Both the position numbers and the translations under genes were made by a program. From a virus (taxonomy: Duplodnaviria; Caudoviricetes): a stretch of DNA of 25,601 nucleotides. The notes below the pieces were generated by a model. That model was not told the DNA's origin. It worked only from the letters and a program-made list of their open reading frames with translations, and did no database searches. The stretch is taken from IMG/VR virus record IMGVR_UViG_3300031470_000003, positions 1 to 25,601 of that record. The stretch is one strand, 5' to 3'. Below are positions 11,198 to 20,767 of this stretch, one piece after another. Within the stretch, counting starts at the first letter, position 1, and each line of letters begins with the position of its first letter.

Positions 11198-11725
11198 CTA
11201 CCTCTTCCTTCGGCGCCGGGACAGGTTGTGGATACTCGCCGCCCGTTGCCGGGTGGTGCGGGTCCTGCCCTTTGCGGCCTGTCGAGCCCGGGTGAGGTTG
11301 CGGATCCCTGCCGCCCGTTGCCGACCAGTACGTGGTCGTCCCTTCGCGGCTTGCCGAGCATGGGCGAGGTTGCGGACACCCGCCGCTCGTTGAGCCGCTG
11401 TATGGGGTCTGCCCCGCTGTGTGGCCCGTCCCTTCGCCAAGTTCACCAGTGCGGCGGCGTGCTGGGCTGCGGTACGTGGTCTTCCGTGTTCCGCAGACCT
11501 CGCTTTGACGAGGTTGGTGCGGGCGGCCGCCAGTTGCGCAGAAGTACGGGGGCGGCCTTTCTGTGCCGCCCTGGCCTTGATGAGGTTGCCGCGGGCGGCG
11601 GAGAGCTGCGCGGCGGACCGTGGTCGTCCTTTTTGCGCCAGGCGGGCGGCGATCAGGTTGTGGGCAGCAGCCCCGCGTTGGGCGCTTGATTCGGTGCGGG
11701 GACCGCGCCTACCACCACGGGGCAC
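11198..11725 (-). CDS. Highly basic protein with seven ~24-aa repeats (GRPR...Q.AA...NL..AR)
   Basis: The repeat is conserved at protein level while the 72-bp DNA units are diverged; it fits exactly between neighbouring genes. Confidence 0.8.
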   Translation of the reverse strand: MPRGGRRGPRTESSAQRGAAAHNLIAARLAQKGRPRSAAQLSAARGNLIKARAAQKGRPRTSAQLAAARTNLVKARSAEHGRPRTAAQHAAALVNLAKGRATQRGRPHTAAQRAAGVRNLAHARQAAKGRPRTGRQRAAGIRNLTRARQAAKGRTRTTRQRAASIHNLSRRRRKR

Positions 11726-11875: not shown

Positions 11876-12934
11876 TTACTTCGCCGACTCGGTGCCCGAC
11901 GGCGAAGACGGCAGGCTGCTGCTGCTGGCCGCCGACTTCGCGTCCGACTTCGCTGCGGAGCTGTCGGAGGGGCTGGACGTGTTCGGCGTCATCGCCGCCG
12001 CCGTGCTGGCATCCGAAGGCTTCGAGGAGGTGTCGGTGCTGGACGATGCCGAGCTGGATGTGCCCGACGGCGAAGACGGCAGGCTGCTGCTGCTGTCCTT
12101 CGGCTTCGCCGTGGTGGTGTCCGTGCTCGACTTCGAGGTGTCTGAGCTCGACGAGCTCGTCGAGCTGGACGCATTGTCGGGCTTCGGCTCGTCCTTCGCC
12201 GACGCCGCCGACTGCGGAGGCTCCGGTGTGGCACCCGCCACCGGGGTACCCGCCCCTGATGCTGCGTCCGGGGCCGTACCCGCACCCGTGGGCGCTGCGG
12301 TGGGCTGGTTCGTGGACGTCGCCACACCACCCGCCGCCGGGGGTGTCGAGGAATCGGGGGATGCTGAGGGACCCGCCTGCTCCGTACCCGGGCCCGTGGC
12401 CTGAGCCTGCGTCTGCTCCTGTGTGGGGGTCTGCTGCGCCGCCGGGGCCGCTACGGTGCCACCACCGATGGTCGGCACTGTCACCGGGGCACCCGTCGAA
12501 GCATCCACCGTGGCACCCGCCACCGTCGTCCCAGGCGCCAACGCCGAACCCGGCTCCACCGTGGCACCCACCGGCGTCACCCGGGCAGGGACAGGCACCG
12601 CATCCACCGACGCCCGCAACGACGCGACCTGCGTTTCGATGGCATCCGCCGCGGCCTGCACCTCCGGGGACGGGGCGTGCTCCGCCGCAGAGAGCTGCGA
12701 CTTCAGATTCGCCACCTGCGACTCGATCATGTTGGTGACCGCCGCGAGGTCGGTGAGGGCAGTGGTGACGGGGCTGACAGTGGGGCTGGTCATGAGGGTC
12801 TCCATTCGGTTCTCGCACACAGCGAGTCGGGTACTGATGGTTTCGATCCAAGTGTTCGTTTGGGCGTGTTCGAAGCGGGTTTCGACGGACTGCATCCACG
12901 CGTTGATCGCCGCCGACGCCGCCGGGGGAATCAC
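11876..12934 (-). CDS. Coiled-coil plus Ser/Thr/Ala/Pro low-complexity hypothetical protein
   Basis: GTGA-coupled to the portal stop; helical N-terminus and a long disordered tail; possible second start at ATG 12793 after GGAGA. Confidence 0.75.
   Translation of the reverse strand: MIPPAASAAINAWMQSVETRFEHAQTNTWIETISTRLAVCENRMETLMTSPTVSPVTTALTDLAAVTNMIESQVANLKSQLSAAEHAPSPEVQAAADAIETQVASLRASVDAVPVPARVTPVGATVEPGSALAPGTTVAGATVDASTGAPVTVPTIGGGTVAAPAAQQTPTQEQTQAQATGPGTEQAGPSASPDSSTPPAAGGVATSTNQPTAAPTGAGTAPDAASGAGTPVAGATPEPPQSAASAKDEPKPDNASSSTSSSSSDTSKSSTDTTTAKPKDSSSSLPSSPSGTSSSASSSTDTSSKPSDASTAAAMTPNTSSPSDSSAAKSDAKSAASSSSLPSSPSGTESAK
11892..12095. repeat. Exact 36-bp direct repeat (11892-11927 and 12060-12095) encoding SSSSLPSSPSGT
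   Basis: gtgcccgacggcgaagacggcaggctgctgctgctg occurs twice. Confidence 0.9.
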
Positions 12935-14400
12935 AGGGTGTCGTCGTGGAGGTTGAGGATGTGGTTACGGACCTTCTCCGCGATGCTCATGGTGTATGCG
13001 GCGGATTCGTCGGGCTGCGTTGGCAGGGCTGCACCGGACTGTGGATCAGCGGGGGGAATGGGGAGGACGTCCGCGCCCTTACCGGCGAGGGCGTCAACCT
13101 CAGCGGTGGACATGGCACCCAAGTCCCGCCACAACAGCGCGATACGGCTCAGGATCAGCGCCGGGTTGTCACCCTCGGGGCCGACGTCGGGCTCATCGAT
13201 TTCCTGCCGGTACCTGTTCAGGGTCCAGCTGCCGTTCTTCAACCGCGTGTCGCGGATGTCCTCGACAACTTTGTCGTCCCGCCAGTCGACGGTCCCGAAG
13301 TGCATTTTCCAGCCGTCGACACTGAACGCGGACAGGAGGGTGAAGTTGAACTTTTCGAGGACAATTTCCCCCACCGGCCCGCACGTGTTGACGCGAAAGG
13401 TTTTGTCCTGTGATGATCCTGTGCCGCCGCCGAGGTTCCCGGACTCTATGACCCCCACCTTCGACGGGGGCACCCCTGCTGCGGACAGGATGACGTCGCG
13501 TTGCTGGTCGAGCACCGCGAGGTAGTCGCCGATTTTCCCCACGTTCAGCTCGGCGACGGTGGTGTCGCCGTGGGTGGTGATGGGAGTGCCGATGTTCCCG
13601 ATGCCCACGTTGCGGATCATGTGCTGTTGCCGCCACAGCCGGATGTCGGAGTCCTGGTGCTCCACACCGAACCCGACGTGCAGGTTCAGCGGGTTCCCTT
13701 TCCGCATGGTTTCTTTCAGTAGTCCGGCGGTGAACAGCCACACGAGGACGGGCAGATACGCTTTTTCGCAGGTCCCGATGCCGTACAGGGAGCCGCGGGG
13801 GGCGTCTTTGGAGACGTGGATGATCTGCTCGGGCTCGAAGTGCGCGGTGCGGTACCCCAATGTTTGGTCGAACCCGGTGACTTGGCCGTGTTCGTCGGCA
13901 TCGACGCTCATCGTCGCTGCGTCCAAGCTGTACAGGGCCACTGGTTTGCCGAAGAGCACCACGATTTCGGTGAAGGAGTCGCCGTATATTTCGGCGTCGG
14001 TGATCACTCCGCGCAGGAGTTGCCGCACGTCTTCGTGGGGGTTCACGTAGTCGAGCAACGCCTGCAACTGCTGCACGGGTGGCGGTGGGTGTTCGGCGTC
14101 CAGTTCGTCGTCGGGTACCACGTGCAGGCCGCCGGCGGTGACGGTGCGGGCGATGACGTCGACGGGGGCGGACACCCAGGGGCAGGAGGTGTACGCGGAG
14201 TAGAACTGGCGCATCGTTTCGGCGCGCCCGTTTTCGTAGTCGCCGCCGGGGTTGAACGGGGTGGCGCCACCGACGGGGACATCACTGTCGTAACCGGCCC
14301 GTACCGGGGTGGCAGCGGGGCGGGCTGGGGCAAGGATCGGGGTGGCTTCGGTGACGGGTTCGGTAGGGCCTTCGAAGAGGAAGTCACGTAACCAACCCAC
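12931..14400 (-). CDS. Portal protein (HK97-family)
   Basis: VSAPVDVIARTV, YVNPHE, IYGDSF, EQIIHV...LYGIG, ILSAAGVPPSKVG and GSWTLNRYRQEI motifs; GAGGAGG RBS; follows TerL. Confidence 0.93.
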   Translation of the reverse strand: MGWLRDFLFEGPTEPVTEATPILAPARPAATPVRAGYDSDVPVGGATPFNPGGDYENGRAETMRQFYSAYTSCPWVSAPVDVIARTVTAGGLHVVPDDELDAEHPPPPVQQLQALLDYVNPHEDVRQLLRGVITDAEIYGDSFTEIVVLFGKPVALYSLDAATMSVDADEHGQVTGFDQTLGYRTAHFEPEQIIHVSKDAPRGSLYGIGTCEKAYLPVLVWLFTAGLLKETMRKGNPLNLHVGFGVEHQDSDIRLWRQQHMIRNVGIGNIGTPITTHGDTTVAELNVGKIGDYLAVLDQQRDVILSAAGVPPSKVGVIESGNLGGGTGSSQDKTFRVNTCGPVGEIVLEKFNFTLLSAFSVDGWKMHFGTVDWRDDKVVEDIRDTRLKNGSWTLNRYRQEIDEPDVGPEGDNPALILSRIALLWRDLGAMSTAEVDALAGKGADVLPIPPADPQSGAALPTQPDESAAYTMSIAEKVRNHILNLHDDTL

Positions 14401-14418: not shown

Positions 14419-16004
14419 TCATGTGGCCCACGGTGCGCGGGTGATTTTCCCCAGGTCCGGGTCACGCTCCGGTGCACCCGGTGCCCACCCGTAACCGTTG
14501 CCGGACGGTGTCGTCAACTGCTCCACAGCGACCACCGGGTCGTGCAGGTCCGGGTCGAGAAGCAGGGATGACACGGTGCCCACAGCCATCAGGAGGTAGC
14601 GACTGGCGTCGTAATGGTGGTCAGCGCCAGCGGTATTCACATCTTCGGGGCGGTGCGGGTCGTAGGTCAGGTTCGGCAGGGTCCGTACCAGTTCGGGGCA
14701 GGTGCCGTCGAGGATGTGCAGCATCGGGCAGGTGTCCCAACCGAGTGCCCGGTGATGGGCGCACGCCGGTCCATCGGCCAGGTAGGTGTGGTAGCGGGCT
14801 TTGCCGCCGAGCCGGTCGTTGTCCGCCTTCGACAGGGCCACACCTTCGATGGCGAACTGTGATGACGGTGGTAGTGCTGACCCGGTTTTGCCCCACATCG
14901 CGGGGTCCGCGGCGTGCCGGACGACTTGTTCCCCGGTTTCGGCGGTGAGGATGTTCCGGGCCTGTTCCCGTTCCGGGGTTTGCACCATGGTCAGCTCGCG
15001 GTACAGCCACATGCGGCCGTCGTTGTCGCGGGCGCCCCAGATGACCACTGATGGTGCGGTCCACCCGTAGTCCATGCCCGCGTACCGCAACCAGGTGGCG
15101 GGGAGTTCGATGCGGGGCACGACGTGCCGGTCGTGGCGCCATTCGGTGAAGACTTGGCCGCTGAAACTGGTCCATGATCCGTCGCGGAACGCGGCGCGCA
15201 TCGCCTCGGGCAGGTTGTCCAGGTCGGAGGCGTATTCGGGGTTCAGGTGCGGATTATCGGTGAGCTTCGCGGGGATGAACCGCACCTGCCGGCCCCGGTT
15301 GTCGGTGATGATTTTCGCCCCGTGGTCGGTGGCGTCGATGTAACGCTGCTTCACTGCGCCGTGCCCGACGCCGCCGGGGTTGGAGCTGCTGCGTACCCCC
15401 AACACGGGGATGTCCTCACGCCCGGACCGTAACCGGGATTCGAGGAACGACACCACATCCGGCGGAGTCAGGGTCCGCTCATCGAACAACAACAGCTGGT
15501 ACTGCCCGCCTTGGCGTTTCGTGGCGTCCGTGATGTTCTCGGCGTACCGGAACATCATCAGCGATCCGTTGGGGAACCGCAGGTCGTGGTGGGAGCGGTC
15601 GTATTCGGCGCCGACGTCGCGGGCGAAGGAGTAGTTGCCCAGTTCGGCGAGCAGGGACTCTTCGAGCTCGGGGTAGGAGCGGCGGAAGGCGCCGACCCGG
15701 ATGCCGGGGTGACGCATGCAGATGCGGATGCCCTCCATCAGGAGGGCCAGGCTTTTCCCCCGCCTGCCGATCCACCGAACAGGACATCCCATTCGGTTGC
15801 GGCGTGAAACAGTTCTTGCGGGCATTGCCCGCACGCGGGGACGTCTAGTCCTTGTTCGGCGGCTTTGGCGCGGGGTAGGCAGTTCGGTTCGTAGCCGAGC
15901 ATCCCGAACACGTCGGCGTTGGCTGCATCGGCAGCGTCAGCGGTTTGTTTCGCCGTCCGCAGTTCCCTCAATAGCTGCAATTTCGATATTTGCAGCTCGG
16001 GCAG
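14419..16004 (-). CDS. terL: Terminase large subunit, encoded in two frames joined by a -1 shift at 15759-15753
   Basis: The upstream frame carries PQELF...DVLFGGSAGGGK. The downstream frame continues SLALLMEG...FRRSYPEL, LLLFDE (Walker B), SSNPGGVGH (motif III), GMDYG and DHHYDASRY (nuclease). The start codon is uncertain (CTG 16004, TTG 15980 or TTG 16049). It may instead be a pseudogene or a sequencing error. Confidence 0.88.
15730..15759 (-). promoter_or_regulatory. Candidate -1 frameshift signal: G_GGA_AAA, 5-nt spacer, GCCCUCC-UGAU-GGAGGGC hairpin
   Basis: In-phase X_XXY_YYZ heptamer at 15759-15753; perfect 7-bp stem at 15747-15730 with the 0-frame UGA in its loop. Confidence 0.5.
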
Positions 16005-16503
16005 TGAGTTCGGCTTGGAGTTCGGCGATTTCTGCGTCGATGTGGTCAATGGTGCTCACCCCAACCCTGATCGGCGCATTCAACCCTAGGAGCTTGCTGC
16101 GGCGTTCGGAGATTTTCAGCAACCGGTCGATAGCCTGCAAGACAGGCCCGTCGTCCTCCAGCGGCGGGGCGCCGTCTTCGAGTCGGATGAGCCGGCCTTG
16201 GGACACCAGGTAGTGGCGGGCTTCGAGTACTCGCCAGGCGGCGCGGGCGAGTGCGTCGAGTTTCATCAGTTCGATGCACCGTAATTCTTCGCCGGGTTCG
16301 GTGATGGTCCGAGCCAGGGCGCGTTCGACGGCGAACCGGGCACCGCTAGCAGAGGTGAAGCCGACGGTGTCAGCGATCTGCTGGTATGTGTGGTCGCGGG
16401 CGCGGAGGCGGGCGCATTCGGCGTCACGTTCGGCGGTGTCGATGGTGCGGATGAATCTGCCGTGGCCGTCGTGGCCGGTGGTGTCGTTGTCAGGGCTTTT
16501 CAC
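15937..16503 (-). CDS. terS: Terminase small subunit (HTH-containing)
   Basis: GRF motif, HTH (LRARDHTYQQIADTVGFTSASGA) and AIDRLLKISERRSKLLGLNAP; directly upstream of and overlapping TerL. Confidence 0.85.
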   Translation of the reverse strand: MKSPDNDTTGHDGHGRFIRTIDTAERDAECARLRARDHTYQQIADTVGFTSASGARFAVERALARTITEPGEELRCIELMKLDALARAAWRVLEARHYLVSQGRLIRLEDGAPPLEDDGPVLQAIDRLLKISERRSKLLGLNAPIRVGVSTIDHIDAEIAELQAELTARAANIEIAAIEGTADGETNR

Positions 16504-16730
16504 AGTGCCCCCCTACTGACACGGATCCGACGCTCGAGCAGGAAGTCGATTCGTTCGCTCATGACCTGCACCCTGGTCAACGCCATCTGCTCGGCGACAG
16601 GTTCGTCGTGGGAGTCGGCGGCGACCTGGCGGGACACCTCACGGGAATACCGGGTCCACGCCAGCTTCTCGTCGATGGTGGCCAACAGGAACTCGCGGGA
16701 CTGCACGCTGGCCACGACCTGGATGGTCAT
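16500..16730 (-). CDS. Hypothetical protein
   Basis: 76 aa, coupled by 4-nt overlaps on both sides; GGAG RBS. Confidence 0.7.
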   Translation of the reverse strand: MTIQVVASVQSREFLLATIDEKLAWTRYSREVSRQVAADSHDEPVAEQMALTRVQVMSERIDFLLERRIRVSRGAL

Positions 16731-19831: not shown

Positions 19832-20414
19832 ACGTCCTCCGCAATTCCCGACGAAAGCCGGACACATCAGGGATCAACGTGAGGACCACATGGTCGTCGT
19901 GCACTTCCACGGGGTCGTACCTCGCCTCCCGTCGTCGTGCTCGACGTTCCCGCCTGACAGCCCGGCGCTGCACCCGCAACTGGTCGGAGTGCATACGGCG
20001 GCGAGCGGCCAGAGCGCAACGAGACTGCGCCTGCGCCTGCGGGTGCGGGAGACCCAAAAACGTGCGCCTCATTGACTCCCACACCCGACTTACCTCGGCG
20101 GCCACGACACGGAACGCGGCGGTGATCACCTCCGCCGCCTCGCGTAGATCCTCCGGATCGACGTGGCTGGTCCGGCGGGGAGGGAGCGCCATCTCAGACG
20201 CCCAATTCCCGAACCTGAGCCCGGTCGCCATGAGCGGACCCTCGACGTCGGATCCGGGGCAAATACCCTGCCTCAGACCGTGCCACATACAGCCACAACG
20301 GCAGCGCGGGAACTCCGGGTCGTTGTAGTCATACCCACCTGGCGCCTCACCTGCCGCTAGCTGCTCATCGACCAGGGCGTCGATGTCGTCAATGACCTGC
20401 TGCGCGGTGCTCAC
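19818..20414 (-). CDS. Hypothetical protein
   Basis: GTGA-coupled start MSTAQQVIDDIDALVDEQLAAGE; GAGGAGG RBS; CRCGCMWHGL...CPGS motif. Confidence 0.75.
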   Translation of the reverse strand: MSTAQQVIDDIDALVDEQLAAGEAPGGYDYNDPEFPRCRCGCMWHGLRQGICPGSDVEGPLMATGLRFGNWASEMALPPRRTSHVDPEDLREAAEVITAAFRVVAAEVSRVWESMRRTFLGLPHPQAQAQSRCALAARRRMHSDQLRVQRRAVRRERRARRREARYDPVEVHDDHVVLTLIPDVSGFRRELRRTYDPF

Positions 20415-20569
20415 TTGTCCTCCTCGAACACGACGACCTGCCAGTGACGACCACAGAAGCGACAACGCACTGCTATCGGAATGCTGTCACTGGGCGACAT
20501 GAAGTCCAGGCTTCGGTGCCCGTCCGGGGAGGTGCACGGCTCCGGTGGTGGTACCCGCTCCCACCTCAC
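20411..20569 (-). CDS. Small zinc-binding hypothetical protein (52 aa)
   Basis: GTG at 20569 overlaps the TGA of the restored upstream gene; C....GH ... CRFCGRHW. Confidence 0.55.
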   Translation of the reverse strand: MRWERVPPPEPCTSPDGHRSLDFMSPSDSIPIAVRCRFCGRHWQVVVFEEDK

Positions 20570-20767
20570 GGCGTCACCACGTCGCACGTTCCGTTGAACA
20601 CCATCACACCAAGCGGCCCATTCGGATTGCTGTCGAGCCACCGCACGAGACCTTGCTCCATCTCCACCCTCATGCCCCTCGGTCTCATCTAGCACCAGGA
20701 TGTACGGGGTTCGTGTCACCGCTCCGACTGTTTCTGTTGGCAGCGGCAGAACTTGAATGCGGCTCAT
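20566..20767 (-). pseudogene. Hypothetical gene apparently carrying a 1-nt insertion near the G4 run at 20678-20675
   Basis: Removing one base gives MSRIQVLPLPTETVGAVTRTPYILVLDETEGMRVEMEQGLVRWLDSNPNGPLGVMVFNGTCDVVTP, ending in a GTGA overlap. As given, it reads through into the next gene. Confidence 0.5.

Follow-up and report, generated by a model that had tools for sequence, protein, structure and literature searches.

The large terminase gene (terL) of this phage is divided between two reading frames at its Walker A motif, and the full-length protein (543 aa) is probably made by tandem -1 ribosomal frameshifting on the heptamer G_GGA_AAA. The split is inherited in relatives and recurs on the same slippery sequence in other lineages, which makes -1 slippage of the ribosome the likely route to the packaging motor. 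The window, that is the whole stretch of 25,601 nt under analysis, is a 25.6-kb piece of a phage that carries head, neck and contractile-tail genes on the minus strand. The features at the site are listed in Table 1.

Table 1. Features at and next to the split terL (positions in the window)
Feature	Position	Strand	Remarks
Likely small terminase (terS) gene, 188 aa; 3' end overlaps the terL 0-frame start	15937..16503	-	phrog_645 match
terL 5' part, 0 frame: TTG start, 99 codons up to the Walker A Lys, then AWPS-stop	15738..16049	-	
GGUGG at the first Gly pair, upstream Shine-Dalgarno (SD)-like position	15772..15776	-	spacing rule as in extracts of PMC4066793
Slippery heptamer G_GGA_AAA, in phase, Gly-Lys of the Walker A	15753..15759	-	same in 25/25 split loci and in L887
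terL 3' part, -1 frame, 444 codons: remaining ATPase and nuclease domain	14419..15753	-	
7-bp hairpin GCCCUCC/GGAGGGC, loop UGAU, 5 nt past the heptamer; holds the 0-frame stop	15730..15747	-	
Portal gene, intact, directly downstream of terL	12931..14400	-	ORF and family matches

Organisation of the split gene

The 0-frame ORF of terL (16049..15738, with an alternative TTG start at 15980) terminates GGSAGGGKAWPS*. The -1 frame from 15753 reads SLALLMEG and onwards, and is assigned to TerL by matches to Terminase_6N, phrog_979 and phrog_2. A profile of A1 gave a weak match (E 2e-4) to the solved TerL structures 5oe8/5oea in the C-terminal half; a single-sequence PDB search gave no match. On the minus strand the junction consists of five G (15761-15757) followed by four A (15756-15753). 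A slip of -1 on the heptamer makes AGC (Ser) the next codon and completes the Walker A as GGSAGGGK followed by S. The 0-frame UGA (15740-15738) overlaps a -1-frame AUG (15738-15736). The inferred shifted TerL has the same length as the natural in-frame allele. Both TTG starts are also those of the in-frame alleles P0002 and P0129, which read GGSAGGGKSLALLMEG; the -1 product is continuous with them, no residue being gained or lost. No UUA codon or insert is present at the junction. The earlier note had described the heptamer, the divided Walker A and a hairpin 5 nt downstream with UGA in its loop, and each of these is exact on the minus strand.

The gene lies between terS-like and portal genes, not between the tail tube and tape measure genes. 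The phrog_645 family is labelled 'Rnase E' in PHROGs, and the terS role of the 188-aa protein is inferred from gene position; the family is also found upstream of five other split terL. Where neighbours could be identified across the split lineages, they are terS-like and portal genes. The head, neck, sheath and tube genes downstream of the portal are all full-length ORFs. A WhiB-like gene in the window points to an actinobacterial host. The terS-terL module of assembly L376 is 94.7% identical to the window (14426-16505) without a gap, while the flanking genes match in patches only, which suggests that the split module may move between phages as a unit.

Several other observations were made in the window. 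Between the portal and head genes, 11198-11725 encodes a 175-aa Arg/Ala-rich protein with about seven imperfect 22-residue repeats and no family match. At 570-1397 a likely tail chaperone comes after the tube gene; the overlapping ORF in another frame that follows it, with a T6 run near 765, makes this a candidate for an ordinary tail-chaperone frameshift. The ORF at 20411-20767, where the earlier note saw a second apparent indel, is a chimera. Its last 52 residues form a stand-alone gene family that starts at a GTG overlapping the stop of another frame, and the coding sequence before them probably shifts frame at a G4 near 20675. The region is absent from L376, and the possible break there does not bear on terL.

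Alleles in the window's population

Contigs (not raw reads) of eight public rock-metagenome runs from separate studies were aligned to the site. Seven bridge it; run X3 has no listed contig across the terL junction and was not counted. The split is present in five of the seven (X1, X2, X4, X5 and X8), at identities down to about 94%. X1 is identical to the window at the site and is possibly the source run, whereas the contigs of X2, X4, X5 and X8 carry 5 to 60 substitutions but have a gap-free junction. The split is likewise found in assemblies L376 and L386. In the other two bridging runs, X6 and X7, the allele is in frame owing to an additional C in the run of G (GGC GGC GGG AAA AGT); the aligner displays this equivalently, as a G-to-C change with one G added. 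This allele lacks the heptamer, keeps the hairpin unchanged and is not a run-length variant. With in-frame alleles in the same population, the -1 shift is dispensable there. Both forms are also seen among the predicted proteins, mostly at the protein level: the 90% cluster of 14 members has four in-frame proteins, eight that start at Met-Glu-Gly and two fragments, and the sister cluster adds two Met-Glu-Gly starts. A Walker A match is held by 116/136 homologous proteins.

Substitutions among the runs follow the frame that each half would use. Upstream of the junction, 8/11 fall at third positions of the 0 frame (one of the 11 belongs to the indel, and four sites overlapping terS were left out); downstream, 10/13 fall at third positions of the -1 frame. 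One change directly after the slip, AGC to AGT, is silent only in the -1 frame. Across split clades, pN/pS in the downstream -1 frame is 0.00-0.14, and the same region read in the 0 frame gives values above 1.5. Upstream, in the 0 frame, it is 0.00-0.34 in three other split clades and 0.66 for the window against L376, the latter on six changes (4 N, 2 S). The L412 clade (eight members, six compared) has kept the split at a pS of about 0.4-0.7. Judged by these substitution patterns, both halves of terL evolve under purifying selection in different frames.

Two types of insertion were seen in related proteins. P0135, a split-form member of the window's TerL group, has an intein-like insert of about 310 aa in the nuclease domain. 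In many terL among L137-L255 and L395-L483 the Walker A Gly-Lys is directly followed by a long in-frame insert, at the same junction as the frameshift, which resembles the start of an intein.

Recurrence on one heptamer

Searching IMG/VR by protein yielded 17 loci. The junction is visible in 16 of these, and two (L013 and L014, a single lineage, 55% identical) are interrupted at the window's position and on its heptamer. A complete IMG/VR set was then defined by the loop Phe/Tyr-Gly-Gly-x-x-Gly-Gly-Gly-Lys ending in GGN GGA AAA plus G or C, and comprises 89 loci. In this set 21 loci from nine lineages have a -1-split terL, all of them on G_GGA_AAA; the split is found in 21/29 rows with GGG vs 0/60 with GGH (GGA, GGC, GGT). 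A pattern scan of GTDB gave one split terL in 121 rows (L683, a Neobacillus drentensis prophage), the others being mostly unrelated sequence. When 401 genomes of the order to which L654's genome belongs were searched by protein, with no sequence pattern imposed, seven close terL came up. One of them (L887) is split, with G_GGA_AAA, Thr as the next residue, GGAGG upstream and a hairpin of -15.9 kcal/mol. In a phylum-wide sample, seven matches were obtained in 6/401 genomes; six had a visible junction and none was split.

The total is 12 split lineages, the window's clade and the GTDB matches included. Eleven of them were placed on a tree of 148 sequences (FastTree, midpoint root, monophyly taken from topology alone), where they occupy nine separate places with 19-80% mutual identity, most with in-frame sisters. 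Slipping brings a Ser or Thr codon next in 25/25 split loci, and all splits seen are -1. The proteins P0006, P0011, P0014 and P0033 (58-70%), distant homologues called from a Met-Glu-Gly start, may represent further split lineages and were left out of the lineage count. The earlier note had taken a continuous terL in all close homologues as an argument against recoding: some are continuous, which counts in part against it, but not all.

Cultured phages whose tblastn matches start past the Walker A had appeared to be splits; all four records turned out to be in frame on reading. No close relative emerged from further searches, and the split was not encountered in any cultured phage. Five records, among them a complete 80.7-kb genome with terminal repeats (G002), were checked for a second terL. 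The split gene was the sole TerL-like match with four queries, two of which, phrog_2 and PF03237, failed to pick up the known gene in part of the records. The genome G026 holds an additional in-frame terL elsewhere.

Mutation controls

Control genes were counted for contraction of the A run and of the G run. For the A run, about 1,200 in-frame parents of the type GGH GGA AAA A[CG] (117/120 sampled are TerL-like) compare with about 114 of the G5A5 type; contraction would predict more splits from the GGH parents, which give none. For the G run, about 126 G6-AAG parents would be expected to behave like about 67 G6-AAA-A genes, and neither of the two deletion-type matches is TerL. With the Gly-Gly-Lys codons left free, a sample of 119 loci contained eight splits, every one of them on the heptamer. 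Fisher tests on lineages yield p 2e-8 and 0.013. However, we regard these values as a guide only, since the denominators are estimates that count non-independent contigs and the A-run control is mostly low-GC (15/120 GGH parents above 0.55 GC). With no split from the GGH parents and no TerL among the G6-AAG-type matches, contraction of the A run or G run by mutation alone does not account for the splits on the heptamer. G5A6 or G6A5 was found in none of 120 loci. The homopolymer phase variation proposed earlier is disfavoured by this and by the extra C, rather than G6 or A5, of the in-frame allele, although this comparison used contigs, which drop rare variants.

Hairpin and upstream sequence

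According to extracts of PMC4066793, bacterial tandem -1 sites combine a heptamer with a structure 5-8 nt downstream and an SD-like sequence 6-17 nt upstream, a layout that the terL site resembles. In the window the perfect 7-bp stem (arms 15747-15741 and 15736-15730) is present in the MFE fold, with a z of -2.0 (9/200 shuffles fold as well). Of 25,561 minus-strand positions in the window, 70 are followed at 4-8 nt by a perfect 7-bp stem. Against synonymous recoding z is only -1.7, because the Ala-Leu...Glu-Gly codons are self-complementary. The stem is unchanged in runs X5-X8, and in X5 the UGA of the loop is UAA. As the in-frame alleles keep the hairpin, it may predate the frame split.

Across lineages the pairing and the spacing are kept, with stem sequences that differ. 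In a 24-nt segment 4-6 nt past the heptamer, picked after the split set had been seen, the fold scores z < -1.5 against synonymous recoding in 7/11 split vs 10% of 226 in-frame lineages (p 3e-5), with a mean z of -1.8 vs -0.1. When nine offsets were scanned, one (5) was strong (p 1e-4) and the others gave p 0.04-0.5. L887 is the one out-of-sample check of the hairpin and passes. Stems are weak in the other 4/11 split lineages (z -0.15 to -0.63), and the in-frame homologue L886 carries a hairpin of -14.4. GGAGG at the first Gly pair is modestly enriched (5/11 split vs 21/156 in-frame lineages, p 0.015); the window carries GGUGG only, a sequence that any Gly-Gly gives. The main proposal of the earlier note, a -1 recoding site inside the Walker A of TerL, holds up in these comparisons: the split is inherited, recurs on the heptamer, has both frames under purifying selection and is enriched for the hairpin.

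Discussion

A sequencing or assembly error in the homopolymer, which the earlier note had taken seriously, would be repaired by one extra base, and contigs, not raw reads, were compared. It is refuted by independent assemblies and has next to no probability: four additional runs of separate studies share the gap-free junction despite as many as 60 substitutions around it, the split is also found in L376, L386 and 11 other lineages, and error-spectrum siblings are absent. A real split could still belong to inactive alleles, in defective prophages or helper-dependent elements, or be the off state of a phase switch in the DNA. The coexistence of split and in-frame alleles, the in-frame majority of homologues, the second terL of G026 and the failure to find a cultured example (four records checked in frame) would all fit. 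However, purifying selection acts on both halves and the split has persisted while synonymous divergence came close to saturation; what sets the in-frame allele apart is a C, not run length, the run-length controls are empty, and the complete genome G002 shows no other terL with the queries tried. We consider inactive or switched-off alleles quite unlikely. The split gene might also work without any recoding, as a two-chain terminase of the N-terminal product and a C-terminal chain re-initiated at the UGAUG overlap (Met-Glu-Gly), or by the C-terminal chain alone. In the window, L402, L405 and L683 an AUG shares bases with the stop of the 0 frame, and gene callers give products of 439-441 aa from the overlapping Met. 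Against this, the P-loop would lose its Ser/Thr and the start of the following helix, yet that Ser/Thr is kept in the -1 frame in every split locus; L399, L439, L398 and L887 are without the stop/AUG overlap, and the fixed heptamer would be left unexplained. This arrangement is very unlikely.

Repair could also take place in the mRNA, if RNA polymerase realigned on the 9-nt G5A4 and added one base to some transcripts, which would then be read normally. The full G5A4 is present in 25/25 split loci, realignment sites can combine two short homopolymers (PMC3711429), and repair in the mRNA and on the ribosome are inseparable by sequence comparison. The G5, however, is forced by the Gly codons, and a single direction is seen, which PMC3711429 gives as the mark of ribosomal shifting. 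A hairpin spacing of 4-6 nt and GGAGG about 10 nt upstream fit the geometry of the ribosome, and back-slippage in G-then-A order would require an A:C mismatch. We consider polymerase realignment unlikely.

Our data are best accounted for by -1 ribosomal frameshifting, which would proceed as follows. The ribosome, its tRNA-Gly paired with GGA and its tRNA-Lys with AAA, would pause at the hairpin 5 nt downstream, aided in some lineages by the upstream GGAGG. Both tRNAs would re-pair on GGG and AAA, and the next codon, Ser or Thr, would complete GGGK[S/T]. Ribosomes that do not slip would stop four codons later and release a fragment of about 100 aa without a conserved tail. The likely outcome would be a TerL output below that of terS and portal from the same message, and in four lineages a side product without the Walker A could arise if translation restarted at the AUG that overlaps the stop. 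A functional Cys-containing short product, as suggested earlier, is disfavoured. The 0-frame tails range from 3 to 116 aa and the Cys insert is found in 2/11 split lineages and also in in-frame homologues, which makes a second functional product from unshifted ribosomes unlikely.

The site may owe its origin to the protein. The Gly-Gly-x-x-Gly-Gly-Gly-Lys loop would be pre-adapted, its Gly codons supplying the SD-like sequence and the G run and the Ala-Leu...Glu-Gly codons the stem. Because of this sequence, loss of one base leaving G_GGA_AAA would be survivable, and the split could then be kept and tuned, independently at about nine places in the tree. Whether the shift is adaptive dosage control or a tolerated rescue is about evenly balanced, since in-frame alleles coexist and the shift is not required. 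The frameshift may throttle motor levels, as the earlier note suggested. Few terminase molecules are needed, and the enzyme includes a nuclease. Both properties could be motives for lower TerL, as could its sensing by the Avs1-3 defences (extracts of PMC13581612). In extracts of PMC4066793, G_GGA_AAA is inefficient in earlier E. coli work yet among the more efficient IS-element motifs. We propose tentatively, giving it somewhat less than an even chance, that phages of several bacterial groups have repeatedly and independently made the Walker A loop a tunable translational valve. The efficiency of the shift would set the dose of TerL (limiting a DNA-cutting enzyme, timing packaging or evading terminase-sensing Avs), and throttled and unthrottled alleles would be under balancing selection.

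Frameshifting in phages is known mainly from tail chaperones and from capsid or tail extensions that yield two useful products. If our reading is true, a P-loop shift in an essential enzyme, recurring at one codon pair, would show that recoding sites can be born from protein-imposed sequence and then kept. In the window's population both alleles of a 98-99% identical protein provide a natural comparison for TerL dose. Gene callers turn split terL into fragments that lack the Walker A (the two closest clusters contain 10 such proteins), and such phages would consequently be filed as defective.

Comparison with known recoding systems

No published report of a recurrent Walker A heptamer in terL was found in the literature searchable without subscription. 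The word 'terminase' is not in the text listing of PMC3711429 or in two of its three supplements, and PMC12846349, PMC3556154, PMC11375127 and PMC10885494 concern other genes in the extracts available. The closest precedents for TerL itself are of another kind. In the Streptomyces phages Hau3 and StrepC.1, recoding of an actinophage large terminase was proposed as regulation (extracts of PMC10732093 and PMC5009743). It involves bypass of 7-10-nt inserts after UUA elsewhere in the gene, in 3/100 ter genes (extracts of PMC10732093), whereas terL here has one base missing, no UUA and a canonical heptamer at the Walker A. In vB_MoxS-R1 and Gordonia phage Nyceirae terL is likewise in two ORFs, and a -1 shift was speculated for vB_MoxS-R1 (extracts of PMC9030533). 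As described there, these are single cases with a GGT-AGC site, no canonical heptamer and no comparative support, which sets them apart.

The tail-chaperone shifts, such as lambda gpG/gpGT, resemble the terL site in being tandem X_XXY_YYZ slips in a phage morphogenesis gene, and G_GGA_AAG and G_GGA_AAC are listed for them (extracts of PMC5009743 and PMC3556154). However, tail chaperones need two products at a set ratio and the shift joins two domains, whereas the terL shift lies inside a catalytic motif. The tail-chaperone shift is conserved; that of terL is patchy and recurrent, with an unshifted product that has no conserved tail. The transposases of IS1/IS3 and E. coli dnaX share with terL the heptamer and the hairpin 5-8 nt downstream; they also have an SD-like sequence 6-17 nt upstream, to which the GGUGG or GGAGG at the first Gly pair of terL is a candidate counterpart, and in IS elements G_GGA_AAA is among the motifs and the shift sets the amount of active enzyme (extracts of PMC4066793). 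terL encodes a packaging ATPase-nuclease and belongs to another gene class; the dnaX shift truncates its product, and OrfA of IS elements has its own function, whereas none is evident for the TerL fragment. The terL site works like the tail-chaperone and IS frameshifts but stands outside the tail-chaperone family. There is precedent for recoding in TerL, and the recurrent Walker A heptamer is best read, from the comparative sequence data, as a new variant of programmed -1 frameshifting.
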